Positions 24,122 through 48,454 are shown, numbered from the stretch's first letter. The stretch is 64,000 nucleotides of DNA from a bacterium (GCA_016124515.1 WGNN01000006.1:5638-69637), one strand, 5' to 3'. Numbers and translations: made by a program. The notes: a model not told the origin generated them from the letters alone.

Positions 24122-26383
24122 TTATTCACGCATAATCCTATACCGTTGAGCTGCTCCATGGTAGGTGAGTGTGAGCACATAACAACCCGCCTCAGACGGC
24201 ATTTCTATGCTTGCAGCACCGGGTTTCAACACGCCGCTTTTTATTATTTTACCAGAAATATTGCACAGAGAATAATGCACGCTTTCCGTGAGTCCGCTCA
24301 CAAACAACAAGTCATTGGCCGGATTGGGAAAAATATCAATGGCATGTGCCGACAAATTATCTACTCCCAAACCGTTGAATGCCACACATTCGGCCGTGTC
24401 GCTGCACGATTCATTGCTTATTAAAACACTGTAGCGTCCGTTTTTTGTTGGGGTAAAAGTCTCGCCTGTGGCACCCGAAATGCCGGTATTGCCGGCATCG
24501 CAATCGATCCATTGGTAGGATTGTGCCGATTTGATATTGGCCGTTAAAACCTTCTCTCCCACTTCAACTACGGCGTGTAAACTGGTTATATTCACTTCCA
24601 ATTCCAGCACCGAATCGCAGCCATTTGTGGTGGGAATGGTATCGAAATAAGTGCCTGATTGGGTATATAAAAACCTGCCGCTGGGCGACGACACTTCGTT
24701 GCAACCACTCAGCACAGCAGAACCGGTATGGCTGTAGTGCATGGTAAGTCTGATAGTAATAACCGAATCGCAACCTTTTGTTGAGGGAACTGTATCGCGG
24801 TAGGTTCCACTTTTGGTATAGGTTTGCTTGCCGCTTGGGACGGTAAATTGGTCGCAGGCGGTTATATCCATATCGCTGTATCGCGTACCAAACGAGAGCT
24901 CCACCTGCACAATAGAATCGCAACCCAAATAATTGACAAGTGTATCATAATAAGTTCCCGGCTTGGTAATCGTGAGGCCGCGCCCGGGCAAAGTATAACT
25001 ACTACACGCAAATACCTGTTGCGAACTGTTGCTTGCCCGCAGCATGGTCAAATTGATTTGTATAATGGAATCGCAACCGCGGCTGTTGGGAATGGTATCA
25101 TAATAAACGCCACTTGAGTTGTAGATGCGCCTTCCGCTGGGGGCAGTATAGGCCGTACAACTTTTTACATTAATTGCCGATTTGCTACTGAGCAGGCTCA
25201 AGTTGGTCACCACTATTGAATCGCAGCCGAACATGGAAGTGAGCGTATCTGAATAAATTCCCGAGGTTGTGTAGGTATCTTTTTTACTCGGCGAAACATA
25301 ATAATTGCATGCCTTGATATCTTGCTTTATTACAGATTTGGCCGACACCGTGAGGTAAACCGTAACGAGGGTATCGCAACCCGCCGAAGTAATAATTCTA
25401 TCGGTATAGGTGCCCGATTTGCTCCATGCATAGCGTCCGCTCGGCGAAATATAGGTTTTACACGATGTGGCAGTGATGGTTTTTGTAGGATTGGGTATCA
25501 CCGTGATATCGAGACTTATTATAGAATCGCAGCCCATATAGTTAGGCAGGGTGTCTTTGTATTTGCCCGATGAAGTCCACTCGTATTTGCCGCTTGGGCT
25601 TTTGTATTTGCCACATCCACTGTCTTTTATAGCAGCACTGGTATAGCCGTGACCCAGGTTTACACCTGTATTCCAATTGGATGTGGCACCGTATAAATTG
25701 AAATTCTTGAGATCACCATCATTACCCGCCCCACTCAGGTCGGTAGATGTGGTGATTTTACTATTATTTTTTCCGGCAACCCCTTGGTTGAATTTATGGT
25801 AAGCCACAAGCCCTTTTTGTCGGCTGCAAAGTTCTTTATTATAGTTGTTCTTTATTTGTTGGTGGTTTCTGGCATAGTTCCACACCCGCACTTCGTCCAT
25901 AAGACCTTCAAAGGGATTGGCATCATCAACCCTGATTCCGAAGCGCAATTTGACAGTGCTGAGCGTATTGGGTGTTATAGAAATATTGAAACTATCCTGC
26001 ACCACACCATCAATAAAGGTTCGGTATTTGGGCGAGGCATTGTCATCATAAGTTACTGCAATATGGTGCCAAGCGGTATCGGCAATAAACTTGGTTCCTG
26101 TTACGCCCTCGCCCCCCACTTCTATGCGCAGTTTGCCATCAATCATATTGAAGGTAAAGCGCGACCCGTTGGGTTTTATGAAGCCATAATCAATCATAAC
26201 CTGCTGTTTCTGTTTGTAGTAGGTCTTTATCCAACACTCCAACGTGCGTGGGTCGTTGCCTGTGGGCGGCACGCAACTCGTTTGCACGTAATCATCACTG
26301 CCATCAAAATCAAGGGCATTTTGAGCATAATTGGGCTGCACGCAAAAGAGCAACAGCGCCAAAGCAAGAAACCTGAAATACAT
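24122..26383 (-). CDS. T9SS-secreted protein: signal peptide, LamG/concanavalin-like domain, 7 tandem ~50-aa 'GCDS' repeats, Por C-terminal sorting domain
   Basis: Signal 'MYFRFLALALLLFCVQPNYAQ'. LamG motifs 'LDFDGSDDYV...LECWIKT...HHIAVTYDD...LMDEVRVWNYAR'. Repeats ending 'GCDSIISLDITV', 'GCDTLVTVYLTV', 'GCDSIVVTNLSL', 'GCDSIIQINLTM', 'GCDSIVQVELSF', 'GCDSVITIRLTM', 'GCDSVLELEVNI'. CTD 'IDIFPNPANDLLFV...YVLTLT'. Confidence 0.8.
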   Translation of the reverse strand: MYFRFLALALLLFCVQPNYAQNALDFDGSDDYVQTSCVPPTGNDPRTLECWIKTYYKQKQQVMIDYGFIKPNGSRFTFNMIDGKLRIEVGGEGVTGTKFIADTAWHHIAVTYDDNASPKYRTFIDGVVQDSFNISITPNTLSTVKLRFGIRVDDANPFEGLMDEVRVWNYARNHQQIKNNYNKELCSRQKGLVAYHKFNQGVAGKNNSKITTSTDLSGAGNDGDLKNFNLYGATSNWNTGVNLGHGYTSAAIKDSGCGKYKSPSGKYEWTSSGKYKDTLPNYMGCDSIISLDITVIPNPTKTITATSCKTYISPSGRYAWSKSGTYTDRIITSAGCDTLVTVYLTVSAKSVIKQDIKACNYYVSPSKKDTYTTSGIYSDTLTSMFGCDSIVVTNLSLLSSKSAINVKSCTAYTAPSGRRIYNSSGVYYDTIPNSRGCDSIIQINLTMLRASNSSQQVFACSSYTLPGRGLTITKPGTYYDTLVNYLGCDSIVQVELSFGTRYSDMDITACDQFTVPSGKQTYTKSGTYRDTVPSTKGCDSVITIRLTMHYSHTGSAVLSGCNEVSSPSGRFLYTQSGTYFDTIPTTNGCDSVLELEVNITSLHAVVEVGEKVLTANIKSAQSYQWIDCDAGNTGISGATGETFTPTKNGRYSVLISNESCSDTAECVAFNGLGVDNLSAHAIDIFPNPANDLLFVSGLTESVHYSLCNISGKIIKSGVLKPGAASIEMPSEAGCYVLTLTYHGAAQRYRIMRE
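24550..25600 (-). repeat. Seven diverged tandem coding repeats (~150-165 bp each) encoding the 'GCDS' module of the T9SS protein
   Basis: Periodicity seen in the translated protein. Coordinates are approximate. Confidence 0.5.
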
Positions 26384-26672
26384 AGAACCTTTCGATTTAA
26401 AATGTGGTGGAGCAATATACAGTAAATGTTGGGATTGCGGTGTATCTGCCCATAACCGCGGGAGCATGAATTTCGCCTAACTCACTGCAACAGACAAAAG
26501 TAGGTGCTTTCAGGCATGCAAAAATCACCCGTTCGGGTGATTTTTGGGTGGAAGATTTGTAGTCTCTTTGTGTCAGGTAAAAAAGGTTAGCGGCGGAATG
26601 TAGGCATCAAGTAATAAAGCAGCCCAAACCGCCCAGACAATTGGTTTCGTAATTTTTTAAATTTTACATAAC

Positions 26673-28223
26673 ATGAAAAGGAGTTTTTTATTATTTGTAG
26701 CGGGGGTGTTTGCTCTGTTGTCAACGAACGTCAATGCCCAAAATCTAACCATTAAAGGTACAGATGCCGATTTTACCAAAGGCAACATTGATGTTGAAGT
26801 ACTTTCAGAAATTATTCAACAAAAACAAGATGAATTAAAGAAAAAGGTGTTTAAAGACCTTGTGATTGACAATTTTAAGAAAAATGACTACCTGAACAAC
26901 TTTGCCACATTCTATTATATGTATAATACAATGGAAACGCTTACAGCGGAAAAAAACAAAACCGTTTTAGCCAGAAAAATTATGCAAGAATCTGCAAACT
27001 ACGCACTTATCTACAGTTTTGCAATAGCTATAAACAAGCACCTTGATGATAAAACTTGGAATAGCATGAGCTCAACATCAACAACACTTGATTTAGGAAA
27101 TTTTGATTTTGTGCCAGATTTATCGCCAGAAGACAACAAATCTTACATAAATATACATAAAAAACTAAAAGAAGACACTAATAAAGTTAAATTAAAGAAA
27201 TTCAACTACATGCTCGACCTTGCCTTTGACGTAATTAAAAACAACAAGAAAGCGCAAGAAAAAAAGCTCTTGAAATTTAGTGAAGATGACGAATTTACAT
27301 TTTGGTACAATGCGGACAATTTATACCTTAAACAACTAGACACTGCTAGTGATGGTCATAGAACCAAACTCATGGCACAGCATGCGGCTGCCGATAAATT
27401 TTTAACAGATATCCTAACCCATTTGGGAGAAAACAGTGCTTACCAAGAATTGTACAAGATTATTAGGGCTACTATGCAAAACAAAGGACAGCTGAATGAA
27501 ATAACATTTAAACAGTACAAAGAAATATTGAATTGCTTGCACAGTTTAACACGAACATCATTTTACCTTACCGAAAATGCTTTTGTTTCTAAAATAACCA
27601 AGTTCATTACCGACTACTCTATGGTAGTTAAAGAAGGCAGTGATAGCTCTATAGTTGTTGATGGGGAAGCGCTTATATCAGTGATATTCGAAAAATTCGC
27701 TTCAGACAAAAAAACCAGCAGCACGTCTTCATGGGCCTTTTTTATTAACCCACGCCCCTATTTTAGTATGGGCATCAACAACGGAATTTTCCTATCAAAT
27801 AACACTTTAGGAAACGATAACTCCAACTTGAAAAATATTCAATTTGCATCGGAGAAAATTGGATTGAAAGTGAAATTATTTGATTTCAGGTATTCACATG
27901 CCTTTGGACCCGGCGAAACATTTAAGTACAAGGGAACATATAGAACCTGGTACCGCCCGGTAAAGGAGTTCACCATAAACGACATTTACTATTACGTTTC
28001 CACCTCAGGATTGTTGTACAACTTGGCAAATATCAAAACTGAATCGAGTTTTAACTATGTGCTATTGAATGCCGGTTTTGGAATGAGCTTTTATAATGAC
28101 CTGGCATTGAACATTGGATTATCGGCACCCATAGTAAACGGAGATATAAGCAACAACAATCTTTTCATCAATGTTGGCTTTGATGTGCCAATTCTAAGCT
28201 ATTTAGGCGCTCTAAAAAAATAG
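26673..28223 (+). CDS. Secreted hypothetical protein (N/K-rich), possible C-terminal beta-rich/OM domain
   Basis: Signal peptide 'MKRSFLLFVAGVFALLSTNVNAQ'. AT-rich codon usage. No recognisable catalytic motif. Confidence 0.5.
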   Translation: MKRSFLLFVAGVFALLSTNVNAQNLTIKGTDADFTKGNIDVEVLSEIIQQKQDELKKKVFKDLVIDNFKKNDYLNNFATFYYMYNTMETLTAEKNKTVLARKIMQESANYALIYSFAIAINKHLDDKTWNSMSSTSTTLDLGNFDFVPDLSPEDNKSYINIHKKLKEDTNKVKLKKFNYMLDLAFDVIKNNKKAQEKKLLKFSEDDEFTFWYNADNLYLKQLDTASDGHRTKLMAQHAAADKFLTDILTHLGENSAYQELYKIIRATMQNKGQLNEITFKQYKEILNCLHSLTRTSFYLTENAFVSKITKFITDYSMVVKEGSDSSIVVDGEALISVIFEKFASDKKTSSTSSWAFFINPRPYFSMGINNGIFLSNNTLGNDNSNLKNIQFASEKIGLKVKLFDFRYSHAFGPGETFKYKGTYRTWYRPVKEFTINDIYYYVSTSGLLYNLANIKTESSFNYVLLNAGFGMSFYNDLALNIGLSAPIVNGDISNNNLFINVGFDVPILSYLGALKK

Positions 28224-28245
28224 AGCCAATTTGGTACTATAGCAT

Positions 28246-28289
28246 GTTTCACAAGTCGGGTGCAGAAATTGCCACCTGACTTGTGAAAT
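28246..28289. promoter_or_regulatory. Inverted repeat (11-bp stem, 20-nt loop) between the secreted-protein gene and the helicase gene. Terminator or operator candidate.
   Basis: 'gtttcacaagtc' ... 'gacttgtgaaat' with 11 of 12 positions complementary. No strong T-run follows. Confidence 0.35.
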
Positions 28290-28323
28290 ATTTAACTATG
28301 TTGCGGCTGAAAAATCGGTTAAT

Positions 28324-31300
28324 ATGCCAACGATATATGACAATATCAGAGAGAAACTAGCTGACGAACTAAAAACAGTAGTTGCTCAATCTTACCGAAC
28401 TGACTTTTGTGTAGGTTATTTCAATTTACGCGGTTGGGGAACCGTTGCTGATTTAATTGACAAATTCGGCGGAACAGATGAAAACTGTTGTCGCCTGATT
28501 GTAGGAATGCAGCGTCCATCAGAAGATGTATTGAAAGAAGTTCTTAGCAATCAAAAAGAAGGCAAGGTTGATCAAGCAAGGGTGGCCTTTTTAAAAAAGG
28601 AAATGGCTCGTGAGTTTAGAGACCAATTAACTTACGGAATCCCAACTTCAAAAGATGAAAATGCCTTAAGGCAACTTTCTGAGCAATTGAAAGCAAAAAA
28701 GGTTATAGTTAAGCTCTATTTGGCGCATACACTTCATGCCAAATTGTACCTGGCTTATAGAGATGACAATAAGGCACCAACTATTGGTTATTTAGGAAGC
28801 AGTAACCTAACTATGTCGGGTTTAGAAAAACAAGGGGAGCTAAATGTTGATGTTTTTGAAAAAGATGCCGCTGATAAACTGGCACAATGGTTTCAAGATA
28901 GATGGGATGACAGATTTGCGATAGATATTACAGACGAACTGGCTGAAATTATTGATGAAAGCTGGGCGGGTGAAAAAGTAATACCACCTTACTATATTTA
29001 TCTTAAAATCGCCTGGCACTTGTCACAAGAAGCTCAAACAGGTGAAAAGAATTTTGAGATTCCGGAGGAATTCAACGATTTGTTTTCATTTCAGAAAAAG
29101 GCGGTGGCTTTGGCCGCTCAACATTTGTACAATAGAAATGGGGTAATGATTGGTGATGTTGTTGGTTTGGGCAAAACCATGACTGCATCTGCATTGGCAA
29201 AGTTGTATGAAGAGACTTTTATCATTGAAACATTGATTATTTGCCCTAAAAATTTGGTTGAGATGTGGGAAGACTATCGCCATAAATACCGATTGAGAGC
29301 AAGGGTGTTCTCAATCTCAAAAGTGAATAAAACTTGGCTTGAAAAAGAAAGAAGGTACAGATTGGTAATAATTGATGAGAGCCACAACCTAAGAAACAGG
29401 GATGGTAAACGATATGGTTTAATAAAAGACTACCTTGAGCAAAATGAGAGTAGAGTAATTCTTTTAACCGCAACACCTTATAATAAGTCTTATTTAGACA
29501 TATCAAGCCAGTTAAGATTGTTCATGTCTGAAGATCAAGATCTAGGTTTCGGTCCAGAGCGTTTTCTTGAAGAAATTGGTGGACAAACAGAGTATGTAGC
29601 GGAATATCAAAGCTCGCCCTTTAGCTTGGTGGCATTTGAAAAAAGTGAGCACGCTGACGACTGGCGAGAGTTGCTTAAAATGTTCTTGGTTAGGCGTACT
29701 AGAACCTTTATTAAAGAAAACTATGCTGAGTTTGACGAGAGTAAAGACCAATATTATTTGACCTATGATGGTGATAAGCGTTATTACTTTCCAAAACGTA
29801 TTCCCAGAAAAATTGAGTACGATTTTGACCCTAACGACCCTGATGATGTTTACGCAAAGCTATTCTCAGCCGATATTGTAAGTAGTTTAAATGCACTTCA
29901 ATTACCTAGATATGGTCTGGGAAATTACATAGAAAATAATAAAAGGGGTACTGCTTCAAATCAAGAAGAAGAGATATTGAGCAATCTTACAATGGCCGGG
30001 AGAAGACTTATGGGCTTTTGCCGAACCAATTTGTTCAAAAGACTGGAAAGTTCAGGTTATTCTTTTCTTCTATCACTTTCAAGGCATGTAATGCGCAATT
30101 ACATCTTTATTTATGCCATTGAAAATAAGCTGGACCTACCCATTGGGGTGCAGGAGCTTGAAATGGACGAGTATTTAGAAGAGCATGATGAAGACTTAGC
30201 TGAATTGGGTGTTTTATCCTTAGAAACGGATGAATCTCATTTTCAAAAATCAGCTAAGAACCTTTACAACGTATTGCGTGACCAAGCCAAAAAACATAAG
30301 TGGATCTCTCCTGAATTCTTTAGAAGGGGTTTAAAGAAGCATTTAAAAGAAGATGCTGCCCGATTAATTGAAATAATTGAAATGGCAAAAAATTGGGATG
30401 CTTCGACCGATAAGCAGATTGATGCTCTCGAAAGACTTTGTCAAAATGATTTTAAAAATGAAAAGGTTTTAGTGTTTACCCAATTTGCCGATACGGCCAA
30501 CTATTTATATAACGAATTAAAGCGAAGAGGTGTAACTCATATTGCCCAGGTAACGGGTGCCAATGAAAACCCAACTGTATTTGCTCATAGGTTTAGCCCT
30601 AATAGTAACAAGTACAAGTTCAAAAAAAATGAAAACGAGCTGAGAATCATAATTACAACGGATGTGCTAAGCGAAGGCCAGAACTTACAAGACGCCCATG
30701 TAATTGTAAATTTTGATTTGCCTTGGGCCTTAATAAGATTGATTCAGCGCGCAGGTAGAGTTGATAGAATTGGCCAAAAAGCACCTGAAATTTTCTGCTA
30801 CTCATTCCTCCCTGCCGATGGATTAGAGACAATTATACAGCTTCGCGGAAGGCTTCAACAACGAATCACCGAAAATGCTGAAGTGGTAGGCTCAGACGAA
30901 ATGTTTTTTGATGGTGATCCAGTGAACATTACAGACCTGTACAACGAAAAAGCGGGAATTTTAGACGAAGATGAAACGGACGATGAAGTGGACTTAACTT
31001 CAAAGGCTTACGAAATTTGGAATCAGGCAACTAAGGCCAATCCCAAGCTGGCCAAAGAGATTAAAGCACTACCGAATGTAGTGTACAGCACCAAACCAAA
31101 ACCCGATGCAGCCATCAACAATGGCGTTATAAGCTACCACAAAACTGCTTTTGGCATTGATGTGCTTACTTGGCTTGATGAAAATGGAAATGTACGCTCT
31201 AAGAGCCAAAATAGAATATTAAACATGCTTGAGTGCAGCTTAGAAACCCCCGCACTTAAACGCTTAGAAAACCACCATGAATTGGTAGGAAAGGCGGTGA

Positions 31301-31653
31301 AACTTGCACAGAAAACCCATAAGAACATGGGCGGCCATTTAGGTAAAAAGAGCAGTGCCAGGTACAAGATTTATCACCGCTTAAAAAGGCTGGAGCAAGA
31401 AAATGAAAACACACTTTTTGAAAGCGAAGATTTGCGCAAGGCCATTGACGATATTTACAAGTTTCCATTGCAAGAAAGTACTAAAACAAGACTCAATAGG
31501 CGTATGCGCATGGGGCTTACTGATGATGAGCTTAGCCAACTTGTAATTGGACTTAGAAACGAAGGTAGATTATGCGTGATAAGTAAAAAGGAAAGTGAAA
31601 CCAATTTGGCACCACAGGTAATTTGTTCAATGGGATTAAAAGAAGTGAATTAA
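28324..31653 (+). CDS. PLD(HKD)-family nuclease fused to an SNF2/ResIII-type SF2 helicase
   Basis: N-terminal single HKD motif 'HAKLYLAYRDD...GSSNLT'. Helicase motifs I 'GDVVGLGKTMTA', II 'IIDESHNLRN', III 'LLTATPYNKS', V/VI 'TTDVLSEGQNLQDAHVIVNFDLPW...QRAGRVDRIGQ'. Confidence 0.85.
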   Translation: MPTIYDNIREKLADELKTVVAQSYRTDFCVGYFNLRGWGTVADLIDKFGGTDENCCRLIVGMQRPSEDVLKEVLSNQKEGKVDQARVAFLKKEMAREFRDQLTYGIPTSKDENALRQLSEQLKAKKVIVKLYLAHTLHAKLYLAYRDDNKAPTIGYLGSSNLTMSGLEKQGELNVDVFEKDAADKLAQWFQDRWDDRFAIDITDELAEIIDESWAGEKVIPPYYIYLKIAWHLSQEAQTGEKNFEIPEEFNDLFSFQKKAVALAAQHLYNRNGVMIGDVVGLGKTMTASALAKLYEETFIIETLIICPKNLVEMWEDYRHKYRLRARVFSISKVNKTWLEKERRYRLVIIDESHNLRNRDGKRYGLIKDYLEQNESRVILLTATPYNKSYLDISSQLRLFMSEDQDLGFGPERFLEEIGGQTEYVAEYQSSPFSLVAFEKSEHADDWRELLKMFLVRRTRTFIKENYAEFDESKDQYYLTYDGDKRYYFPKRIPRKIEYDFDPNDPDDVYAKLFSADIVSSLNALQLPRYGLGNYIENNKRGTASNQEEEILSNLTMAGRRLMGFCRTNLFKRLESSGYSFLLSLSRHVMRNYIFIYAIENKLDLPIGVQELEMDEYLEEHDEDLAELGVLSLETDESHFQKSAKNLYNVLRDQAKKHKWISPEFFRRGLKKHLKEDAARLIEIIEMAKNWDASTDKQIDALERLCQNDFKNEKVLVFTQFADTANYLYNELKRRGVTHIAQVTGANENPTVFAHRFSPNSNKYKFKKNENELRIIITTDVLSEGQNLQDAHVIVNFDLPWALIRLIQRAGRVDRIGQKAPEIFCYSFLPADGLETIIQLRGRLQQRITENAEVVGSDEMFFDGDPVNITDLYNEKAGILDEDETDDEVDLTSKAYEIWNQATKANPKLAKEIKALPNVVYSTKPKPDAAINNGVISYHKTAFGIDVLTWLDENGNVRSKSQNRILNMLECSLETPALKRLENHHELVGKAVKLAQKTHKNMGGHLGKKSSARYKIYHRLKRLEQENENTLFESEDLRKAIDDIYKFPLQESTKTRLNRRMRMGLTDDELSQLVIGLRNEGRLCVISKKESETNLAPQVICSMGLKEVN

Positions 31654-31654
31654 T

Positions 31655-34600
31655 ATGCAAAGTATAAGCAAGCAACAATTCAAAGCTTGGGTTAAAGCAT
31701 TTGATTTTTCTGAGCTTTTTAATCAATTAGGTTGGGACTATGTAGATGATGAAATTTACAAAAAGGTGGGTGATGAAACATTTACTTTTAACCATGTAGC
31801 CAATAAAGAAGGTTTTGCCATTTTAGTAGTTGAGCCTGATAAAAATGGCCAAATTCCAGCCGCCGCAGTAAGGAAAAGAGTGCATACCGAAATAAGCAAA
31901 CTTCACCATGAACACTTGCTCATTTTTATTGATAAAAACAAATCTGCACAGCAATGGGAACTCATTTTAAGAGAACCCAATAAACCCATTAGAACTGTTG
32001 GCCATAAATGGAATAAACAGCAAGACCCCGAATTACTATACCAAAAGCTAGCAGGAGCTTTTTTTAGCTTTGACGAAGAAGGCAACCTTACCATTATTGA
32101 TGTAGTAAACCGCCTTAAAGAAAACTTTGGCGCAAATGCCGAAAAGGTTACCAAAAAATTCTATGCAGAGTTTAAAACCCAACACAAGGCCTTTTTAGAC
32201 TTTATATCAGGCATTGACGACCACATTAAAAAAGGCGAAAACAAAAACAAGCAATGGTATGCTTCGCTCATGCTCAACCGCTTAATGTTTTGCTACTTTA
32301 TACAGAAAAAAGGTTTTTTAGATGGCGATAGAAATTACCTGAGCAACAAACTTGAAGCTTGCAAAAACCTTGGTGCAAATGATCAATTCTATAGCTTTTA
32401 TCGCAGCTTTTTATTAGAGTTATTTCATGATGGTTTGGGTAAACCCGAAGCCAATAGAAATCATAAAATTCCCGTTGATTTAGGCAAAATACCTTACCTA
32501 AACGGTGGTTTGTTTGATGTGCATCAGCTTGAAAAACAGTTTGAAGCCATACAAATTGCTGATGATGCTTTTGAAAAGATATTTGAGTTTTTTGACAAAT
32601 GGGAATGGCATTTAGATACCCGTGAAGATGCAACGGGCAAAACCATAAACCCCGATGTAATAGGCTACATTTTTGAAAAGTACATTAACGAGCGTGCCGC
32701 TATGGGTGCCTATTACACCAAAGAAGATATTACCGAATACATAAGCAAAAACACCATACTGCCTTTTCTTTTTGACGAAACACAAAGGCAATACCCCAAA
32801 GCTTTTAAAACCAATGCCCATATATGGCAATACCTGCAGGCAAGTGGTAGCGACTACATTTACGATGCGGTAAAAAAAGGTGTGCCGCAAGAAGGGGAAC
32901 TTTACAGTGATTTACCTGACGAAATACAGGAAGGTTTTAAACCCGAGCTTGAAGATAAAGTAGTGGCCGAAACCACTGAACCACACCTTTGGGAAATAAG
33001 AAGACCATGGAACCAAGCAGCACCTGAAGAAATTGCCCTGCCCACCGAAACCTACCGCGAGCTTATTGAGCGCCGTAAACGCTATGCCGATATAGCGCAA
33101 AAGATACATGCAGGTGAAATAGAAAAGATAAATGACTTTATAACATACAACCTAAACATAAGACAGTTTACCCAAGATTATTTAGAAACTACCAATGACG
33201 CCGATTTTATTAGGCATTTCTACAAAGCCATAAACAAAGTAACCATCTTAGACCCTACCTGTGGTTCAGGTGCTTTTTTGTTTGCCGCACTTAATATATT
33301 AGAGCCGCTCTACAATACGTGCTTAGACCGCATGGAAGAATTTGTGACTGAAAATCCCGGCAAGTACAAATTCTTTGAAGATACCCTGAATAAGGTAAAC
33401 AGCCCCGAACACCCCAGCCGAACCTATTTTATTTACAAGAGCATCATACTCCATAACCTGTTTGGGGTTGACATAATGAAAGAAGCGGTTGAAATTGCCA
33501 AGCTGCGTTTGTTCTTAAAATTGGTAAGCACAGTTGAAGTTGACTACAAAAAACGAAACCTGGGCCTTGAACCTTTACCTGACATTGACTTTAACATACG
33601 CCACGGCAATACCTTGGTGGGTTTTGCCACCGAGCAAGAATTGCTAAATACCATACAAAAACACGATGCCCTTTTTGCTCAAGACAAATTGGATGAGTTT
33701 AAAGACGAGTGTGATATAGTAGCCAAGGCTTACACTCAGTTTAGCAATTGCCAATTAGACGATAACGTTCCCATTGATGACAAAGCAAAAGCCAAAAACG
33801 ACTTAAACGCTAAACTAGAAACGCTTAACTCAAAACTCAACAAGTACTTAGCCACCAACTACGGTATAGATGCCGATAAAAAACCAAAAGACTACGGCGC
33901 TTGGCTTGAGAGCCACATGCCATTCCATTGGTTTGCCGAGTTTTATCAAATAATAGCAGGCAATGGCGGTTTTGATGTGATTATTGGGAATCCACCATAC
34001 ATAGAATATAGCAAAGTCAGAAAACAATATACCATCGTTAACAAGGATGAAGCAAGTTGCGGTAACCTATTTGGAATCGTAACGACAAAGCTTGATGTTC
34101 TCAAGAATGAACATGGGAGAACAGGGATGATTGTGCCGATTAGTCTAATATGCACGAAGCGCATGTCAAGTGTGTTAGAAGAATTAAAGAACAACAATTT
34201 GTGGCTCAGTCACTATGCAGAAAGACCCAGTAAGTTATTTACAGGAGCCGAAGTGTTGTTGACTATTTATTTAACGGGTGAAACAAATCTGAAGAAATCA
34301 CAAACGTATTCAACTGGATTCACCAAATGGAACTCAAACTTTCGAACATTTTTGTTTGATTCTACGACCTACCAGCCAAACGATTCAATATTCAGAAATT
34401 ATGTATCCACTAAAAGCTCAAGTCAAGTTGATTTAAACATAATTTACAACTTGTTAGAAAGGCAAGAAGTAATTGAAAAAGATATTGTGTCTCAATCAAA
34501 ATTTGAGATTTTCTATAGAATCGGTGGTGGAAGATATTGGAAAATATTTACTGATTTTTCCCCGAGATTCATATTAAATGGTGTTGAAGGAAAGTCCAGT

Positions 34601-35041
34601 CGTGAGAATCGAATTTTCTTTAGAACTGATAGAAATCGCTTTCTAACAATCTCAGCACTTAGTAGCAGCCTATTTTATTATTATTTTATTCACACGACAA
34701 ATTGTCGCGATTTGAACCCAAACGACCTGCGGTCGTTTCCATTACTAGAGAATAAAATAGATAAACATATAGCCACTCAATTGTCTAAACTGGGTGACGA
34801 TTTGATGCGTGATTATCAAAGGACTAGTGAATTCAAGAAAAAAACATCTAGTAAAACCGGTGAAATAGAGTATCAAGAATTCTATCCAAGAAAATCAAAA
34901 GATATCATCGACCAAATCGATACAGTATTAGCGCAGCATTATGGTTTTACCGAAGCAGAATTAGATTTTATCATCAACTACGATTACAAATACCGCATGG
35001 GCGGGGCTTTAAGTGAAGGTGGAGATGGAAAAGAAGAATAA
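31655..35041 (+). CDS. Large gamma-class N6-adenine DNA methyltransferase (Eco57I/PglX/DrmMI-like), 1128 aa
   Basis: Motif X 'GAYYTKEDITEYI', motif I 'LDPTCGSGAFLFAALN', motif IV 'IIGNPPYI'. About 330-aa N-terminal and ~350-aa C-terminal (TRD-like) extensions. Its start is 1 bp after the helicase stop. Confidence 0.85.
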   Translation: MQSISKQQFKAWVKAFDFSELFNQLGWDYVDDEIYKKVGDETFTFNHVANKEGFAILVVEPDKNGQIPAAAVRKRVHTEISKLHHEHLLIFIDKNKSAQQWELILREPNKPIRTVGHKWNKQQDPELLYQKLAGAFFSFDEEGNLTIIDVVNRLKENFGANAEKVTKKFYAEFKTQHKAFLDFISGIDDHIKKGENKNKQWYASLMLNRLMFCYFIQKKGFLDGDRNYLSNKLEACKNLGANDQFYSFYRSFLLELFHDGLGKPEANRNHKIPVDLGKIPYLNGGLFDVHQLEKQFEAIQIADDAFEKIFEFFDKWEWHLDTREDATGKTINPDVIGYIFEKYINERAAMGAYYTKEDITEYISKNTILPFLFDETQRQYPKAFKTNAHIWQYLQASGSDYIYDAVKKGVPQEGELYSDLPDEIQEGFKPELEDKVVAETTEPHLWEIRRPWNQAAPEEIALPTETYRELIERRKRYADIAQKIHAGEIEKINDFITYNLNIRQFTQDYLETTNDADFIRHFYKAINKVTILDPTCGSGAFLFAALNILEPLYNTCLDRMEEFVTENPGKYKFFEDTLNKVNSPEHPSRTYFIYKSIILHNLFGVDIMKEAVEIAKLRLFLKLVSTVEVDYKKRNLGLEPLPDIDFNIRHGNTLVGFATEQELLNTIQKHDALFAQDKLDEFKDECDIVAKAYTQFSNCQLDDNVPIDDKAKAKNDLNAKLETLNSKLNKYLATNYGIDADKKPKDYGAWLESHMPFHWFAEFYQIIAGNGGFDVIIGNPPYIEYSKVRKQYTIVNKDEASCGNLFGIVTTKLDVLKNEHGRTGMIVPISLICTKRMSSVLEELKNNNLWLSHYAERPSKLFTGAEVLLTIYLTGETNLKKSQTYSTGFTKWNSNFRTFLFDSTTYQPNDSIFRNYVSTKSSSQVDLNIIYNLLERQEVIEKDIVSQSKFEIFYRIGGGRYWKIFTDFSPRFILNGVEGKSSRENRIFFRTDRNRFLTISALSSSLFYYYFIHTTNCRDLNPNDLRSFPLLENKIDKHIATQLSKLGDDLMRDYQRTSEFKKKTSSKTGEIEYQEFYPRKSKDIIDQIDTVLAQHYGFTEAELDFIINYDYKYRMGGALSEGGDGKEE

Positions 35042-36080
35042 AAAGGAATTTCTACTCACGCGTAAGCATGTGCAAATTGTTTCGTGGGTTGGTTTGTTAC
35101 TATTAATCTTTTCATTGTTTCTGCCAGCCCTATTAAGTCAAAATACAGGTTGGTGGGATTTTAGTACTACCGGAGAAATTGGCGATACCATTGGCGGTAT
35201 TCTTACACCTGCTATTGCAGTAATTGCCGCAGGTTTAACCTTTCTCGCATTTTACGTTCAGTTTGAAGCCAATCAGCAACAAAAAAATGACATTGCTCGC
35301 GAACGTTTAGAAAGGAAGTTTTATCAGTTATTGGAATTGCATAAAAAGAATGTAGATGAATTACAACTTAATGAAAAAATAAAAGGGCGACACTACTTTC
35401 CTCATTTATTCAATGAGTTTAAAGCCAGCTACTATTTATGTGAAAAATTGATGAAGGAAACGAATCAAGTAGATTCTTTAGATGACGAGATGCTTATTGA
35501 TGTAGCCTATAGATTTATGTTTTTGGGTACTAATTCATTAACTCCTGAAAACATTCCTGTTCTTTTCTCAAGGAGTTCATTTCCCTTTATTCTAAAAGCA
35601 CATAATTTAGCAACTGATGTACTACATCGAAGCTTTGATGGCCACATGAAACAGAATCCACACTTTCCGTTACAGGGATATATTTTTCAAGATAATAATC
35701 CTAAGCGTGGTGAACCATATCTCATTTATCATAAACCCTTTAGCGGGCACTCACATCAATTAGGCCATTATTTTCGAAACTTGTTTCACATGGTGAAACT
35801 TATTGATCAAAATACATGGCTTTCTGATGAAGAGAAAAAAGACTTTACAAGAATAATTCGTGCTCAACTTAGCAATGAAGAGCAGTTGATGCTTTATTAT
35901 AATGCTCAAAGCAATTACGGTAAAGCATGGTTTGAAAATGGCTATTTCAAAAAGTATAAGCTTGTGCACAATATGCCTGTTCAAATGGCTGAGATTGGAC
36001 TGAACCCGAAAAGTAAATTCATAAGTAAGTATGGTGCTTTACCAAATGGCGAAGAATACTTTGAATGGGACGAGCGATGA
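35013..36080 (+). CDS. Membrane protein, possibly of the 'putative phage abortive infection (AbiC-like)' family
   Basis: Two N-terminal TM helices flanking 'GEIGDTIGGILTPAIAVIAAGLTFLAFY', then a soluble ~280-aa domain. The Abi assignment is by recalled motif resemblance only. Confidence 0.4.
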   Translation: MKVEMEKKNKKEFLLTRKHVQIVSWVGLLLLIFSLFLPALLSQNTGWWDFSTTGEIGDTIGGILTPAIAVIAAGLTFLAFYVQFEANQQQKNDIARERLERKFYQLLELHKKNVDELQLNEKIKGRHYFPHLFNEFKASYYLCEKLMKETNQVDSLDDEMLIDVAYRFMFLGTNSLTPENIPVLFSRSSFPFILKAHNLATDVLHRSFDGHMKQNPHFPLQGYIFQDNNPKRGEPYLIYHKPFSGHSHQLGHYFRNLFHMVKLIDQNTWLSDEEKKDFTRIIRAQLSNEEQLMLYYNAQSNYGKAWFENGYFKKYKLVHNMPVQMAEIGLNPKSKFISKYGALPNGEEYFEWDER

Positions 36081-36628
36081 CTAATAAACTACTTGACAAT
36101 TTCAGAAGAAAAGTTGCCTTTAAAACATCTTTATCAGATGCTTTTAGAAGGGGTCATGTTTACAATACTGATTTTACAGAATCACAAAAGAATAAGGCAA
36201 AGGCAAGGCTAATTCCTATTCTAAAAGAAAAACTACCTTCAATTATTGAATGTTTAGATATTGAAAATGGTTACACGGAAGAAAATCTTTGCAATCAAAT
36301 AGAAAAGCTTGCAAACGATATTACCAAGCTATTGCCAAATGATTTGAACAATAGCCGTTTCAGAATAGGAACAGCCCAAAAGCTCATCAACGTATATTGG
36401 AAGTTTCTTTGGCTTTTTGAGCTTACCGAAAAGGAGCCATTGCATTGCCCGATAGATTCGATAATTCTTGGTACCTTAGATGAACCATTTAAAAGTTTAA
36501 GATGGACACAACTTGATTCAATAGGCCAGTACAAAGAAATTATTGAAGAAATACGTATAAAGGCAGAAGCTAAAGACCAATCAATTGCCGTTTGGGAGTT
36601 GGAAGTATATGACCAAAAAGTGAATTAA
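36077..36628 (+). CDS. Hypothetical protein (183 aa), translationally coupled (ATGA overlap) to the upstream Abi-like gene
   Basis: ATG at 36077 overlaps TGA at 36078-36080. No recognisable motif. Confidence 0.5.
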   Translation: MTNKLLDNFRRKVAFKTSLSDAFRRGHVYNTDFTESQKNKAKARLIPILKEKLPSIIECLDIENGYTEENLCNQIEKLANDITKLLPNDLNNSRFRIGTAQKLINVYWKFLWLFELTEKEPLHCPIDSIILGTLDEPFKSLRWTQLDSIGQYKEIIEEIRIKAEAKDQSIAVWELEVYDQKVN

Positions 36629-36637
36629 ATAATCAGT

Positions 36638-37102
36638 ATGACATTTGCCAACGAATCAGACTTTGAAGCCTATCTAAGAGGTGAAATTATTAAACCGATA
36701 ATCACCAGTCATAAGGAGTATTACTTAATGGAGAGCAAAAAGGCAGTTGATATACTTATTTGTAAAAATGGTTCTAATCCTTCATTGTACTTCATTGAAG
36801 TAAAGTATCACAAAAAACTACATGGAAGATTAGGTATAGGCCAAAGAAAAGGTGTCGGTTTTCAGCCCGAGATACTAAGCAGTAAACCGACATATTTCCA
36901 GAATAACCTTAGATGGGTAATGGGCTCTGAAAGTCATAATGGCTTTTTGTGGCTTCATAATGACGAAATTACCGAGTATCTTAATGCCGGAATGGTGGGA
37001 GGCAAATACAACGGGGTGCGGAAAAAAATCTTCAATGAAAAACCACTTTTAAACACCGCCCAATTGGAGAGCAATTTAAGAAGTTGGTTAGGTGTTGAAT
37101 AA
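36638..37102 (+). CDS. Small PD-(D/E)xK-like (restriction-endonuclease-fold) protein candidate
   Basis: 'AVDILICKNG-x11-YFIEVKY' fits the hhhD...(D/E)xK core, with an upstream acidic 'FEAYLRGE'. Confidence 0.45.
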   Translation: MTFANESDFEAYLRGEIIKPIITSHKEYYLMESKKAVDILICKNGSNPSLYFIEVKYHKKLHGRLGIGQRKGVGFQPEILSSKPTYFQNNLRWVMGSESHNGFLWLHNDEITEYLNAGMVGGKYNGVRKKIFNEKPLLNTAQLESNLRSWLGVE

Positions 37103-37140
37103 ATGTGAAATAAATTAATAGGATCAATAAAAGATGATTT

Positions 37141-37506
37141 ATGAAAATTGGAATTCAAAATTTTTTAGCCTTCATAATTCTCAACTTTGGTATGTTGATG
37201 ATACCTTTCATCGTGTTGCAGCTGCATGCTAATGATGTTCAACTTCACGAATTTTCAATAGCACTGTCGTTTTACCTTGTAGCACTTGCGTTTACTTCAA
37301 GTACGGTTATTGGGTTCATTTCTCTACTAGTTCTCTCTATTTTCACCCTTTTTGACTATGCTTTTATTGATCGAACAATACCGGTAACAAAATTGGATTA
37401 TCATGTTGCCTTATACATCGTGGCCTTTATTGCTACAATATTGATATCGTATGAAAAATACGTGAGACAAGGCCAACCAATAATTGAAATAAGGCAATTA
37501 TCATGA
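37141..37506 (+). CDS. Small integral membrane protein (3-4 TM)
   Basis: Hydrophobic throughout. ATGA overlap with the next gene. Confidence 0.4.
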   Translation: MKIGIQNFLAFIILNFGMLMIPFIVLQLHANDVQLHEFSIALSFYLVALAFTSSTVIGFISLLVLSIFTLFDYAFIDRTIPVTKLDYHVALYIVAFIATILISYEKYVRQGQPIIEIRQLS

Positions 37507-38324
37507 CGCTAATCACAATTACTATTTGCTCGCTCGCTTTGTTACCTTTGGTGTGGCAATTTGGTGCAAACATTAACGCGGACTTAAAATTTAAACGGGT
37601 TCTTAAAGCGAATAAGGAAGAAATCCTTGAGTTTATGAGTGCCATTGGCTTTCGAAGTGACCCACCTAACCCTTTTCGAGTAAACTATGCATTATATAAT
37701 TTGCTGTACATAGAGTTTGATAAGATTATAAAGGAAAAGCTGACAGGTGGTGCCAAGGCCATTATTCTGGAAAGCTTTTCACATAAAAACATTCCTCAAA
37801 CTTTAAGATTCTTGAACCGAATGCTCCCTGTAATTGGTATTGCGAGAATTGAATTTGAAGAAGCCGCACTCAAATCAACATTAGAGCAGGTACAATACAA
37901 AAAAGAGAGTGAGCAAAATGAAGAAATCAAGAGACTGAATAAAATGCTTGAAAAAGCAAATATTAAACAAAAGACAATTGAGAAGCTCGGTGAAGAAGTG
38001 AAGACTGCTTCGCAGTCAGAACAAGGTTTAGGAGTTTCAAAAGACTCTGCGATTGCAACCCAAGAATATACCATGAAGGTTAAAGAAAGAACAAGCCGCG
38101 TTCAAAGTCTTAATGATCAATTTGACAATGAGTATAGCAAATTACAATCGCTCTTTGATCGTATTGAAAACAAATTGACTGAAGACGAAAATTATTCTTT
38201 TTTCAAGAAAATGAAGGAAGTCTCTGAACGTTTAAAATCCTTAGAAGAAAATCAAAGGTATATTAATGAAGAGACCAAGAGAACTACTGAAGAGTTTCAG
38301 GAAGGTCTTGAAAAAAATGACTAG
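37503..38324 (+). CDS. Membrane-anchored coiled-coil protein
   Basis: N-terminal TM 'ITICSLALLPLVW', then a K/E-rich heptad-like region. Confidence 0.45.
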   Translation: MTLITITICSLALLPLVWQFGANINADLKFKRVLKANKEEILEFMSAIGFRSDPPNPFRVNYALYNLLYIEFDKIIKEKLTGGAKAIILESFSHKNIPQTLRFLNRMLPVIGIARIEFEEAALKSTLEQVQYKKESEQNEEIKRLNKMLEKANIKQKTIEKLGEEVKTASQSEQGLGVSKDSAIATQEYTMKVKERTSRVQSLNDQFDNEYSKLQSLFDRIENKLTEDENYSFFKKMKEVSERLKSLEENQRYINEETKRTTEEFQEGLEKND

Positions 38325-38494
38325 TAGTCGTCGATATTGTCTTGTATATGAGTGCAAGGTGATTAACCAAATTAAGCAGGCCATGACTGATTAACTTGCC
38401 TTTTACCTTAAGATGTTTTGATTGAAGTGAATAGCCGACTGAGTTTTAAGAAACTGACCAATTGGAAGCTTAAATTGCAATAGAATTAGCACAA

Positions 38495-38941
38495 ATGGAA
38501 TACCTAGGAAACAAAGAACTACTGAAACTAAAGAAAGTTTGTTTCTTATGCAGCAGAAAAATAGCTCCCAGTGCCATACTCAAGTGTTACGATTGGGCTA
38601 CGGATATGCGCAAAAAGCAGCAGTGCGTAATAATGGGTGCACACAGCCCTATAGAAAAAGATGTTTTCGACATTTTGCTCAAGGGTTCACAACCCCTTAT
38701 CTTGGTCTTGGCTAGGGGCATGAAAAGTGTTTGGAGCTCAGAAGTGCTTGATCAGATAAAAGCCGGAAGACTGTTGGTTATTGCCCCATTTGACAAAAAT
38801 GTAAAGCGTATAAGTAAGGAAACAAGTAAAAAAAGGAATGCGCTTCTTGTTTCGCTATCCGCCGAATTGGTTATCGGTTACCTTTCTACAAACAGCGATT
38901 TAAAAACACTCATTTCGGAAAGCCCATATATCATATTATAA
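38495..38941 (+). CDS. Standalone DprA/Smf-like Rossmann (SLOG-superfamily) domain protein
   Basis: 'VCFLCSRKIA' aligns with DprA 'VAIVGSRxAS'. 'CVIMGAHSPIEKDVFDILLKGSQPLILVLARGM' aligns with 'VVSGLARGIDAAAHRGAL..G.TIAVLGCG'. 'RNALLVSLSAELVI' aligns with 'RNRIISGLS..VVVVE'. Confidence 0.5.
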   Translation: MEYLGNKELLKLKKVCFLCSRKIAPSAILKCYDWATDMRKKQQCVIMGAHSPIEKDVFDILLKGSQPLILVLARGMKSVWSSEVLDQIKAGRLLVIAPFDKNVKRISKETSKKRNALLVSLSAELVIGYLSTNSDLKTLISESPYIIL

Positions 38942-38950
38942 CTAATCGAT

Positions 38951-39442
38951 ATGGACATTAGATTTAAAAATATAACCTTTACAAGCTTTTCACACCACAA
39001 ATCCACTCCTCATAATCCCCTCAATATGCACCTGACAAAATACCTCCCATTCATTAGCTTAAGCATGTTTTTGCTTCTCTCCACCAGCTGTGCCACTTCC
39101 TATCGTTTTAACCAAATACGGAGGTATGATGCAACCGGAAACTTACAAGACAGCCTTGAAAGGGACTTTGTTGTAAAAATAAATCCGCGCAAAAACTTGG
39201 TGGTTTTCCGGCTCGGGCAACAAAACATTGAATACTTGGCCAATGAAATCAGCTATAAATACCCGCCATTCACCTTTCGAAAGAAAAAATCCAATCGGCA
39301 GGGAGTGGCCATATATTTTGATAATAAGGACTACCTGTACATCAATTTCAATGGACCAAAAAAAACGGCCAACTCAGGTTATATTACCTTGCACGATTCA
39401 ACTGATATTTTGGGTTTTGGTTTGGCATTTGAAAAAGAATGA
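38951..39442 (+). CDS. Hypothetical secreted/lipoprotein
   Basis: Hydrophobic segment 'LPFISLSMFLLLSTSC' (lipobox-like 'STSC'). Confidence 0.4.
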   Translation: MDIRFKNITFTSFSHHKSTPHNPLNMHLTKYLPFISLSMFLLLSTSCATSYRFNQIRRYDATGNLQDSLERDFVVKINPRKNLVVFRLGQQNIEYLANEISYKYPPFTFRKKKSNRQGVAIYFDNKDYLYINFNGPKKTANSGYITLHDSTDILGFGLAFEKE

Positions 39443-39527
39443 TTTTTACGAAAAGCCAAATTTCGATTTAATTCTTCACCATAAATTCTTTAAGAAAAAA
39501 AATGCCTTAAGTTCGTCTTAAATAAGT

Positions 39528-40088
39528 ATGAAAAGGTATATGGAACCCGAAAACCACCACCGCAACGTTCGCCAATCGATGGTTGGTGAACTGCTTCAGT
39601 CAAAAAGAAAATCTGTTGATCACCTTACCGAATCAATCGCCAATTACAATGAAATTCTGGAATTTGTAAGGACTCCGGCGCTACTTCACCACATGAATGG
39701 CCTTATCGCATGGCTCATCAGATTTGTGGCTATGATACTTGGGTTGGCGTCAATACTTACATCTTTGCTTTTATTTTTCTCTAAAGCATGGCCCGACTCG
39801 TGGTGGCAAACCCTGCTTGCCAACGAAACCTTGGTGGGAAACGAACCTGTTGCAGAAGTCAAACTTGAAATGATGTTGGTATTCGTCTTTTTTGGTCTTA
39901 TTACCATGATTATTGGCTTATTACTCATCACTTTATCATGGCTAATTGGCTCAGTAAGAAACAGGTCAAAAACTATAAGGGATTTATCAATGGTTATTAC
40001 AGAAATGTTGTCGCACGAAAAAGACTTTTTAGAAAGCGAAAAAAACGCCTACTTAAACCTGAGCAAGGAATTAGACAATTGGACTTGA
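39528..40088 (+). CDS. Hypothetical membrane protein (3 TM)
   Basis: Three hydrophobic helices. No known motif. Confidence 0.4.
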   Translation: MKRYMEPENHHRNVRQSMVGELLQSKRKSVDHLTESIANYNEILEFVRTPALLHHMNGLIAWLIRFVAMILGLASILTSLLLFFSKAWPDSWWQTLLANETLVGNEPVAEVKLEMMLVFVFFGLITMIIGLLLITLSWLIGSVRNRSKTIRDLSMVITEMLSHEKDFLESEKNAYLNLSKELDNWT

Positions 40089-40158
40089 CTGTCATGAATT
40101 TAAGTCTAAGGATGAACTGTGTGTTTTGGGAAGGCCCCAAAATAAAATTTGACTCCCC

Positions 40159-47111: not shown

Positions 47112-47117
47112 TATTTA

Positions 47118-47735: not shown

Positions 47736-47800
47736 TTTGCTTTATTTTGGCTATAAAAATATAGTTTAGCCCCCTTACCACCCAACATAAGCACAAAAGA

Positions 47801-48373: not shown

Positions 48374-48454
48374 TGCCAAAACTGATTATCACAATCAAAA
48401 TTATTATAACCGACGGTTGGCTTAGGGCCTGTAGTTATTATGCGGATTGAATAG

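Follow-up and report, generated by a model that had tools for sequence, protein, structure and literature searches.

A probable horizontally acquired defence island with a three-gene restriction-modification-like core in the LamG-truA gap of a deep-branching Bacteroidota genome

In the Type ISP restriction enzymes, i.e., LlaGI and LlaBIII, an Mrr/PD-(D/E)xK nuclease, a superfamily 2 (SF2) ATP-dependent translocase, a gamma-class N6-adenine methyltransferase (MTase) and a target recognition domain (TRD) are joined in a single polypeptide. Class 1 DISARM has, besides DrmA and DrmB, an SNF2 helicase (DrmD), a phospholipase D-type (PLD) nuclease (DrmC) and an N6-adenine MTase (DrmMI). Fusions of an HKD nuclease domain to a Swi2/Snf2 helicase were proposed as restriction effectors of the restriction-modification (R-M)-like BR systems, and in Type-2 BR such a protein, with its HKD domain at the N-terminus, stands beside an N6-MTase (PMC12839542). 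For Hma, the helicase-MTase operon has been documented as a hotspot at which defence genes insert (PMC11232893), and a gene pair of PLD-SNF and type II R-M was noted earlier (PMC9881135). A different role is known for ShosA, a DprA-like homodimer that must bind single-stranded DNA (ssDNA) and interact with RecA in order to neutralise its toxin (PMC12961424; also PMC11961720). Here a stretch of 64,000 nucleotides of bacterial DNA (GCA_016124515.1 WGNN01000006.1:5638-69637; hereafter the window) was analysed. The region of approximately 26.47-40.15 kb is very likely a horizontally acquired defence island, not visibly self-mobile, in the gap between a LamG gene and truA of a deep-branching Bacteroidota genome. 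The core of the island is, with the same confidence, a three-gene ATP-dependent R-M-like system. The three genes (the triad) and the two host genes that enclose the island are as follows.

24122-26467, minus strand: LamG protein sorted by the type IX secretion system (T9SS), secreted, 781 aa; left host flank and conserved anchor (Pfam Laminin_G_3 1.3e-22, Por_Secre_tail)
28324-31653, plus strand: component 1, fusion of an HKD (phospholipase-D-type) nuclease and an SNF2 ATPase/translocase, 1109 aa
31655-35041, plus strand: component 2, PglX/Eco57I-like gamma-class N6-adenine MTase, 1128 aa; begins 2 nt past the helicase stop codon
38495-38941, plus strand: component 3, stand-alone DprA-fold (Rossmann/SLOG-type) protein, 148 aa
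40159-40941, plus strand: truA, tRNA pseudouridine(38-40) synthase; right host flank (Pfam PseudoU_synth_1; 100% identical to NCBI GC194_00515)

The core resembles several of these systems in part. With the Type ISP enzymes it shares the nuclease, the SF2 ATP-dependent translocase, the gamma-class N6-adenine MTase and the TRD, and the MTase model matches their structures; by analogy, self-marking and motor-driven cleavage of unmodified DNA would be expected here too. However, the functions are split over two genes, the nuclease is of the HKD/PLD type, the motor is SNF2, and there is a DprA-like third gene. The best full-length structural matches of the MTase are BREX PglX/BrxX (9ewz, 8q56, 8c45), with which it has in common an Eco57I/MmeI-type core and a hypervariable specificity region, and like them it may depend on partner proteins for restriction. 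In contrast to BREX, the island has no PglZ, BrxC, BrxA, BrxB or BrxL, and the NCBIfam PglX score was 64 bits against a cut-off of 500. The SNF2 helicase, the PLD nuclease and an N6-adenine MTase of the same superfamily are shared with class 1 DISARM, as are partial DrmD and DrmMI matches, but no DrmA or DrmB (DUF1998) was found in the island open reading frames (ORFs), and PLD is here fused to SNF2. The Hma and BR systems are defined by a DUF499 ATPase (with DUF3780 in Type 2) and a DUF1156-type MTase, none of which is in the island, although a partial HmaA match was obtained (2.7e-23). ShosA and PsyrA have the DprA Rossmann fold and are likewise small DprA-like proteins encoded beside a potentially DNA-harming protein; unlike in ShosTA and PsyrTA, neither the phosphoribosyltransferase (PRTase) toxin ShosT nor a RecQ-like PsyrT is present in the island, and the 148-aa protein is a Rossmann domain alone. 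In PADLOC and NCBIfam only partial, sub-threshold matches to DrmD, BrxH, HmaA, DpdE, DrmMI and PglX were obtained. Membership in DISARM, BREX, Hma/BR, Type ISP, ShosTA and PsyrTA was rejected because the defining components are lacking. The anticodon nuclease PrrC sits inside type I hsd loci. As in such nested R-M operons, unrelated defence genes lie here between genes of the restriction operon and the cargo varies between strains, but the host operon is another one, and the slot is between the MTase and the DprA-like gene.

The first-pass annotation, made from the sequence without database searches, had described an AT-rich compositional island beside truA, and its deviation in guanine-cytosine (GC) content and in tetranucleotides was measured over approximately 13.7 kb. 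The GC content of positions 26,500-40,150 was 0.372 versus 0.454 in the remainder of the 64-kb window. Among all stretches of 13.65 kb (step 100), which had a median GC of 0.445, the lowest-GC one began at 26,501, and the sliding GC profile fell from approximately 0.45 to 0.35-0.41 across 26-40 kb. The tetranucleotide distance to the flank profile (strand-symmetrised, 3-kb windows) was approximately doubled, i.e., 23-34 in the island and 12-18 in nearly all flank windows; the sole further outlier, at 57-60 kb, was an AcrB-type transporter gene. Both edges were sharp, with GC steps that span approximately 200 bp at 26.4-26.7 kb and at 40.0-40.3 kb. On the left GC dropped from 0.47 to 0.36 over 26,400-26,700, and on the right it rose from 0.34 to 0.52 over 39,850-40,450, where the step coincided with the truA start codon. 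The abrupt shifts thus lie where the first-pass annotation had drawn its edges, near 26.5 and 40.1 kb, and the return to host composition at truA, which it had also claimed, was confirmed.

The GC content at third codon positions (GC3) separated the two groups of genes completely. It was 0.28-0.45 in the 11 island genes and 0.456-0.58 in 36 flank genes, with disjoint ranges (Mann-Whitney U=0, p=7e-7). The LamG gene has a GC3 of 0.49, and both the GC profile and GC3 agree with the abrupt change of codon usage and composition that had been noticed after it. All 11 island genes are on the plus strand, and the flank genes are almost all on the minus strand. Within the block GC3 was uneven, i.e., 0.38 in the left gene, 0.35-0.42 in the triad, 0.28-0.37 in the nested cargo and 0.45 at the right end. 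This heterogeneity suggests more than one acquisition event.

The source genome is a Bacteroidota metagenome-assembled genome (MAG) labelled 'bacterium', the contig is 89 kb long, and the lineage is poorly sampled. The truA matches in the genome and metagenome scans were 27-37% identical, and the best non-self match in a 5.8-billion-protein database was 50% identical. Exact-protein look-ups of truA, the MTase and LamG gave no match, although NCBI has proteins identical to those of the window. The empty-site comparison therefore rests on four distant relatives (L018-L021). These relatives keep the flank order, i.e., LamG/T9SS (minus), truA (plus), bpX3 (minus), bpX0/1 (minus), bpX2, bpMoxR, bpX4 and a pentapeptide-repeat gene. 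The identity to the window flanks was 42-55% for LamG, in the same position and orientation, and 45-47% for truA; it was 39% for bpX3, 37% for bpX0/1, 38% for bpX2, 79% for bpMoxR, 35% for bpX4 and 54% for the next gene. The LamG-truA gap is 13.7 kb in the window versus approximately 0.95 kb in L018, L020 and L021 and 1.85 kb in L019. It holds one acidic 255-aa gene in the former three, and PALP and hexapeptide-transferase genes in the latter. The gap in these relatives is thus without the island genes, as a foreign island would lead one to expect: the 11 island proteins gave zero tblastn matches at E<=0.01 against the four loci, and no remnant of the 255-aa gene was found in the window.

The nearest homologs of the island helicase and MTase were 70% and 61-64% identical, respectively, and the identity was still 54% in Geobacter and Pelobacter. 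Taken together, the composition, the synteny and the homologs in unrelated taxa, which are closer than those of truA, support the view that the block was acquired at the LamG-truA gap or replaced it. The L018-L021 loci have approximately 36% GC, near the 37% of the island and far below the 45% of the window flanks, and the loci with the closest triad homologs have 33-37% GC, so that a lower-GC Bacteroidota donor is plausible. The window's own lineage appears to differ from its nearest sampled relatives by a shift in GC. Of the features of a genomic island, deviant composition and absence from the syntenic site, the latter in distant relatives only, were found, and mobility signatures were not. 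A defence island needs at least two clustered systems, and here the helicase-nuclease/MTase and AbiC lie inside and a MoxR-vWA-beta-propeller system just outside. The horizontally acquired defence island proposed by the first-pass annotation is accordingly supported by the composition and the synteny break and, for its inferred anti-phage function, by the R-M-like genes and AbiC.

The triad was found in ten independent loci, i.e., the window, L022, L023, L024, L032, L035, L039, L040, L041 and L042. In the MTase-first loci L022, L023 and L024 (Geobacter MAG), which come from three unrelated sources, the PLD-SNF2 gene is directly 5' of the MTase and an approximately 150-aa DprA-like gene, 46-49% identical to that of the window, is 3' of it, with differing genes between. 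In L041 and L042, also MTase-first, a divergent DprA-like gene (31%) lies approximately 90 nt past the MTase. A DprA-first search, used against circularity, gave four triads (L032, L035, L039 and L040). The three genes are contiguous in L035 (Flavobacteriaceae) and in L039 and L040 (viral-collection contigs), and the order in L032 (Kapaibacterium) is helicase, KilA-N, MTase, a 429-aa gene, DarT, DarG (Macro) and DprA-like. Another four DprA-like matches are on contigs of the same lengths as contigs with MTase matches.

The helicase and MTase genes as a pair are more widespread. They stand next to each other on plasmids of Pelobacter, Synechocystis, Nostoc and Rhodococcus, with recombinases and insertion sequence (IS) elements alongside, and in 23 of 25 distant viral-collection loci; the DprA-like gene was in none of these or the plasmid loci. 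A compact triad is carried by a Mu-like transposable phage with lysozyme, Mu F-like and Mu transposase genes (L039, 3375-10456, IMGVR_UViG_3300036947_000777). Mobile vehicles for the system therefore exist, i.e., the Mu-like phage for the triad and plasmids for the pair.

Five of the ten triads are compact, with 0-93 nt between the MTase and the DprA-like gene. The other five carry 0.7-3.6 kb of cargo in this gap, i.e., AbiC with SLFN/AlbA, NYN, DUF1016/YhcG, the 429-aa gene with DarTG, and, in the window, AbiC with four orphans. Other defence genes have thus repeatedly landed in this gap. The 148-aa DprA-like gene is to be grouped with the helicase and the MTase, and the five intervening genes are cargo nested among them. 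The first-pass annotation had correctly placed an N/K-rich secreted protein, a helicase, an MTase and small genes between LamG and truA, and its R-M-like pair is present. The small genes that follow the pair are not a plain tail of unknown genes and include the DprA-like third component and the nested cargo.

Insertions were also seen between the helicase and the MTase, i.e., a VapBC-type pair in L026 (Synechocystis PCC 6803 pSYSX, 43696-51129) and KilA-N in L032 (2171-2986). A gene with Schlafen/AlbA_2, HATPase_c_4 and Fic-like_C domains recurs in the L022 slot (14225-15910), 5' of the helicase in L024 (4885-6450) and as a fragment in L029. In Nostoc (L028) the gene 3' of the helicase encodes a 1341-aa 'RNA-binding domain-containing' protein with MTase homology. 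Downstream of the compact triad of L035 (10524-17925) come four small genes without annotation and a McrBC-like system with an EVE domain, and McrBC is also downstream in L022; from these neighbours, the triad tends to sit in larger defence islands.

The helicase-nuclease showed the Pfam domains PLDc_2, RE_NgoFVII, SNF2-rel_dom and Helicase_C, and PADLOC matched it as 'HKD+Snf2' (9e-55). In nine loci from four phyla, the nuclease motif H138-x-K140...G158-S-S-N161, the Walker A motif GLGKT (281-285), DESH (351-354) and the motif VI QRAGRVDRIGQ (808-818) were invariant. Single-HKD nucleases such as Nuc and BfiI act as dimers. Because each chain has one HKD, dimerisation would be needed to build one active site.

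The MTase was matched over its full length by PADLOC REase_MTase_IIG (PDLC03628, 4.5e-286), and the Pfam domains Eco57I and MmeI_Mtase were found. In 47 homologs, motif I DPTxGSGAF (533-541) and motif IV NPPY (779-782) were invariant, and residues of approximately 830-1080, in the C-terminal part, were the most variable region, as expected of a specificity domain. The MTase motifs and the TRD are in one polypeptide, as in Type IIG enzymes. The invariant motifs of the helicase and the MTase predict that both are catalytically competent. No sequence-level PDB match was found for the MTase. Its structural model (predicted local distance difference test, pLDDT, 72) matched BREX BrxX/PglX best, over approximately 1100-1190 columns, followed by CamA, M.BseCI and the Type ISP enzymes LlaGI/LlaBIII. 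The N-terminal region of approximately 120 residues is modelled as an alpha-beta-beta-beta-alpha-beta-beta domain with pLDDT of 75-90, and no Pfam MmeI_N match was obtained for it. Here D93, E107 and K110 are near-conserved. In 10 of 47 members D is replaced by N or E by Q, mostly independently, a pattern that is not typical of catalytic residues. These replacements leave an intrinsic MTase endonuclease unconfirmed, and the HKD domain is the likely effector. Position 59 is Cys in 46 of the 47 family members and Val in the window protein, and residue 108 is often Glu and is Pro in the window protein and its closest relatives.

The third component matched Pfam DNA_processg_A (1.4e-6) and PADLOC PsyrA (5e-9). 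The AlphaFold2 model had a pLDDT of 94.5, and the top PDB matches were the ssDNA-binding Rossmann domain of H. pylori DprA (TM 0.77) and ShosA (8zva, E=4e-8), with other SLOG-type folds as further matches; the modelled fold suggests that the protein presumably binds ssDNA. It is not a full DprA/Smf protein: TIGR00732 gave 19.7 bits against a cutoff of 191, and the 148 aa comprise the Rossmann domain only. Orthologs 44-50% identical (31% in L041 and L042) are encoded 3' of the helicase and MTase in the nine other loci, and the gene was found on no PLSDB plasmid. A solitary homolog, 47% identical and without helicase or MTase, is in L037/L038 (10001-10513; IMGVR_UViG_3300002920_000015, 3300003892_000002), which are bona fide phage with a Baseplate_J-containing giant protein and dUTPase. 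The phage may use this homolog as a decoy against host defence or as a recombination mediator of its own. As a speculation, such a solitary copy would fit a regulatory or antitoxin-like role open to phage mimicry. Another solitary copy, in Anaerophaga (L029), lies beside a 75-aa Fic-like_C fragment (9710-9937) and looks like a decayed locus.

From these components a working scheme can be proposed. The MTase, which also carries the TRD, would methylate an asymmetric recognition site wherever it occurs in host DNA. When invading DNA lacks this mark, the MTase/TRD subunit would recruit or license the SNF2 motor, and ATP-driven translocation would join two single-HKD domains into one active site, so that the DNA is cut. 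Such a motor-plus-collision scheme would be a split, HKD-armed analogue of the Type ISP enzymes. The DprA-like protein would bind ssDNA made by or near the motor-nuclease, and possibly RecA, by analogy with ShosA. Its role may be in RecA-dependent repair or self-protection, which would limit or mend self-damage, or in sensing phage ssDNA. The membrane-associated AbiC-like protein is a likely second defence layer, to which the four orphans may possibly belong too. It is a tentative further proposal that the triad is a distinct, unnamed defence system, in which a DprA-like ssDNA/RecA binder couples restriction to recombination, repair or self-protection. In this tentative proposal the MTase-DprA gap would be a preferred docking site that captures defence modules, the four orphans would be candidate defence genes, and the solitary phage homolog of L037 would perhaps be a counter-defence decoy.

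Several findings weigh against a horizontally acquired defence island with this core. The helicase scores far under the curated cut-offs of every named family, e.g., 135 versus 610 bits for DrmD and 140 versus 1100 for the anti-phage PLD protein. Where the pair is plasmid-borne or more distant, the DprA-like gene is lacking, and it is solitary in L029 and in phage L037; it is thus a conserved accessory of the window's subclade and not a universal component. A functional annotation is lacking for seven of the 11 island genes, and the label of defence rests on four genes and their context. With relatives as distant as a truA identity of 45-50%, the time of the gain, and a gain versus multiple losses, are not strictly resolvable, and the genome is a MAG with junctions as assembled. 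Between 26.4 and 40.2 kb, no integrase, transposase, phage structural gene, tRNA, or terminal or flanking repeat was found, and the search of the island edges for direct repeats, which the first-pass annotation had recommended, gave none that was convincing. The insertion is therefore read from synteny and not from scars.

The lack of scars bears on the route of arrival. The block could be a decayed integrative mobile element, i.e., a prophage, an integrative and conjugative element (ICE) or a transposon-borne island, of which the mobility genes and end repeats were lost or lie elsewhere. This differs from the favoured explanation only in the route, and the carriage of the triad by a Mu-like phage, the plasmid pairs beside recombinases and IS elements, the terminator-like hairpin stranded at the left junction and the heterogeneous GC3 along the block would all fit it. 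Nevertheless, it is rather unlikely, for besides the missing mobility genes and repeats, the genes are co-oriented and densely packed without pseudogene-like gaps. Ancestry of the region, with loss from the relatives and a low GC due to gene-specific constraint, e.g., low expression or AT richness like that under xenogeneic silencing, is very improbable. It would draw on the distance of the relatives, their variable LamG-truA gap and their island-like GC of approximately 36%. However, at least three lineages would have had to lose the block independently, and 0 of the 11 genes is retained in those loci. Also, the island genes have closer counterparts in unrelated taxa (e.g., Geobacter and Pelobacter, 54%) than housekeeping genes have in the nearest relatives, the GC3 ranges of island and flank genes do not meet, the system is demonstrably mobile, and the homolog matches already suggest that helicase and MTase depart from the species tree. 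An assembly or binning artefact, in which DNA of a lower-GC organism was joined into the contig, is hardly credible at all. The source MAG is labelled only 'bacterium' and the composition step is abrupt at both edges, but the flanks are one conserved neighbourhood in four other genomes, so that two precise intergenic chimeric joins would be needed, and gene spacing is normal and continuous across both junctions.

A further alternative concerns the core and not the island. The three genes might be independent and merely co-located, i.e., a self-sufficient Type IIG MTase, a separate modification-independent PLD-SNF2 nuclease and an unrelated DprA-like gene. The full-length PADLOC Type IIG class of the MTase, its restriction-endonuclease-like N-terminal layout with the near-conserved D93, E107 and K110, the solitary DprA-like genes of L029 and L037, and the fact that other genes can separate all three would be understandable on this assumption. 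It is doubtful, since the helicase-MTase linkage recurs in the window and nine triad loci, four plasmid loci and 23 of 25 distant loci of at least four phyla, often with a gap or overlap of 1-4 nt. Moreover, the N/Q replacements at D93/E107 and the nuclease-free PglX/BrxX as the best structural matches argue against a self-sufficient MTase, and the DprA-like gene has the same position and orientation in ten loci. Acquisition of an island with a linked three-gene core therefore remains the preferred explanation.

The remaining features of the island and the adjoining host system are listed below. The ORF list agrees with the NCBI locus-tag spacing from GC194_00470 (MTase) to GC194_00515 (truA).

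26468-26672, no strand: left junction; terminator-like hairpin at 26,520-26,546 between divergent gene starts
26673-28223, plus strand: 516-aa N/K-rich protein with signal peptide (translation); GC 0.349, lowest-GC part of the island
28244-28291, plus strand: hairpin with 19-nt arms and 10-nt loop, between the 516-aa gene and the helicase gene
35013-36080, plus strand: nested cargo 1, AbiC-like abortive-infection protein, 355 aa, N-terminal membrane helices
36065-36628, plus strand: nested cargo 2, orphan, 187 aa (ORF translation)
36638-37102, plus strand: nested cargo 3, orphan, 154 aa (ORF translation)
37141-37506, plus strand: nested cargo 4, orphan, 121 aa, membrane (ORF translation)
37503-38324, plus strand: nested cargo 5, orphan, 273 aa, membrane and coiled coil (ORF translation)
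38951-39442, plus strand: right-end gene, 163 aa, lipoprotein-like signal; GC3 0.45
39528-40088, plus strand: right-end gene, 186 aa, membrane protein; GC3 0.45
40938-47735, minus strand: complete MoxR-vWA-beta-propeller ternary conflict system of the host (bpX3, bpX0/1, bpX2, bpMoxR, bpX4; Pfam)

The AbiC-like protein matched Pfam putAbiC (3.5e-20) with 72.7 bits against a cutoff of 22 and is thus a member of the family. It was also matched by PADLOC AbiC (6e-9) and phrog_8999 (1.2e-25), and a homolog, 33% identical, fills the corresponding slot in L022. No significant match in Pfam, PADLOC, NCBIfam or PHROGs was obtained for the four orphan genes (36,065-38,324), and they were not present in any of 40+ related loci; their GC3 of 0.28-0.37 is the lowest in the island. 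In the 154-aa orphan, a D38-x15-E54-x-K56 pattern (VDILICK...LYFIEVKYHK) seen by eye is reminiscent of PD-(D/E)xK nucleases, without database support. For the right-end genes (163 aa and 186 aa) no homolog was found in any related locus. Permissive Pfam and PHROG scans were empty for the seven unannotated island proteins.

The 516-aa protein belongs to a family with 404 representative homologs, in which conservation is concentrated in residues of approximately 300-516. The C-terminal part of approximately 200 aa alone is widely shared and is always C-terminal, in proteins of 480-1500 aa. This arrangement suggests a family of membrane anchors with variable passenger regions. No Pfam, PADLOC, NCBIfam or PHROG match was found for the protein, nor a Pfam match in 32 homologs. 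The 516-aa protein and the last two small membrane proteins showed no detectable defence signature.

Two hairpins were found near the left edge. The left-junction hairpin at 26,520-26,546, i.e., AAAAATCACCCG-TTCG-CGGGTGATTTTT, has a GC-rich stem and a T-run on both strands. It has a folding energy of -22.4 kcal/mol (z=-5.4), is unique in the window, and is placed exactly at the GC drop. It is terminator-like, yet it lies between divergent gene starts, where a terminator is not expected. The inverted repeat that the first-pass annotation had reported inside the island is real, with the coordinates 28,244-28,291. This hairpin has -29.9 kcal/mol (z=-7.7), is without a T-run after it, and is probably a terminator or a module boundary. 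No counterpart was found 5' of the helicase genes in five related loci, and a role as system-specific operator was for this reason rejected. A scan for sigma-70 promoters and terminators was at chance level, the Bacteroidota promoter type being outside its coverage, and no Rfam families were found in the island. In the conflict system next to truA, conservation was very uneven in L020 and L021, i.e., 79% for bpMoxR versus 35-39% for the other components, in the same gene order.

As a genomic feature the island is ordinary and of a textbook kind, and its core is an unnamed variant of the ATP-dependent R-M-like systems. The insertion was recognisable from conserved synteny even at only approximately 50% protein identity to the nearest relatives. 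The new point is that a widespread helicase-nuclease/MTase pair, mentioned earlier only in passing, gains a DprA-fold partner and an internal cargo slot in one large subclade; neither the DprA-like third component nor the MTase-DprA slot was found described in the literature searched, of which the coverage was incomplete. The triad is an experimentally tractable three-gene candidate system and gives a hypothesis for DprA-like proteins in restriction-type immunity. The contents of the slot across thousands of loci offer a route to new defence genes.

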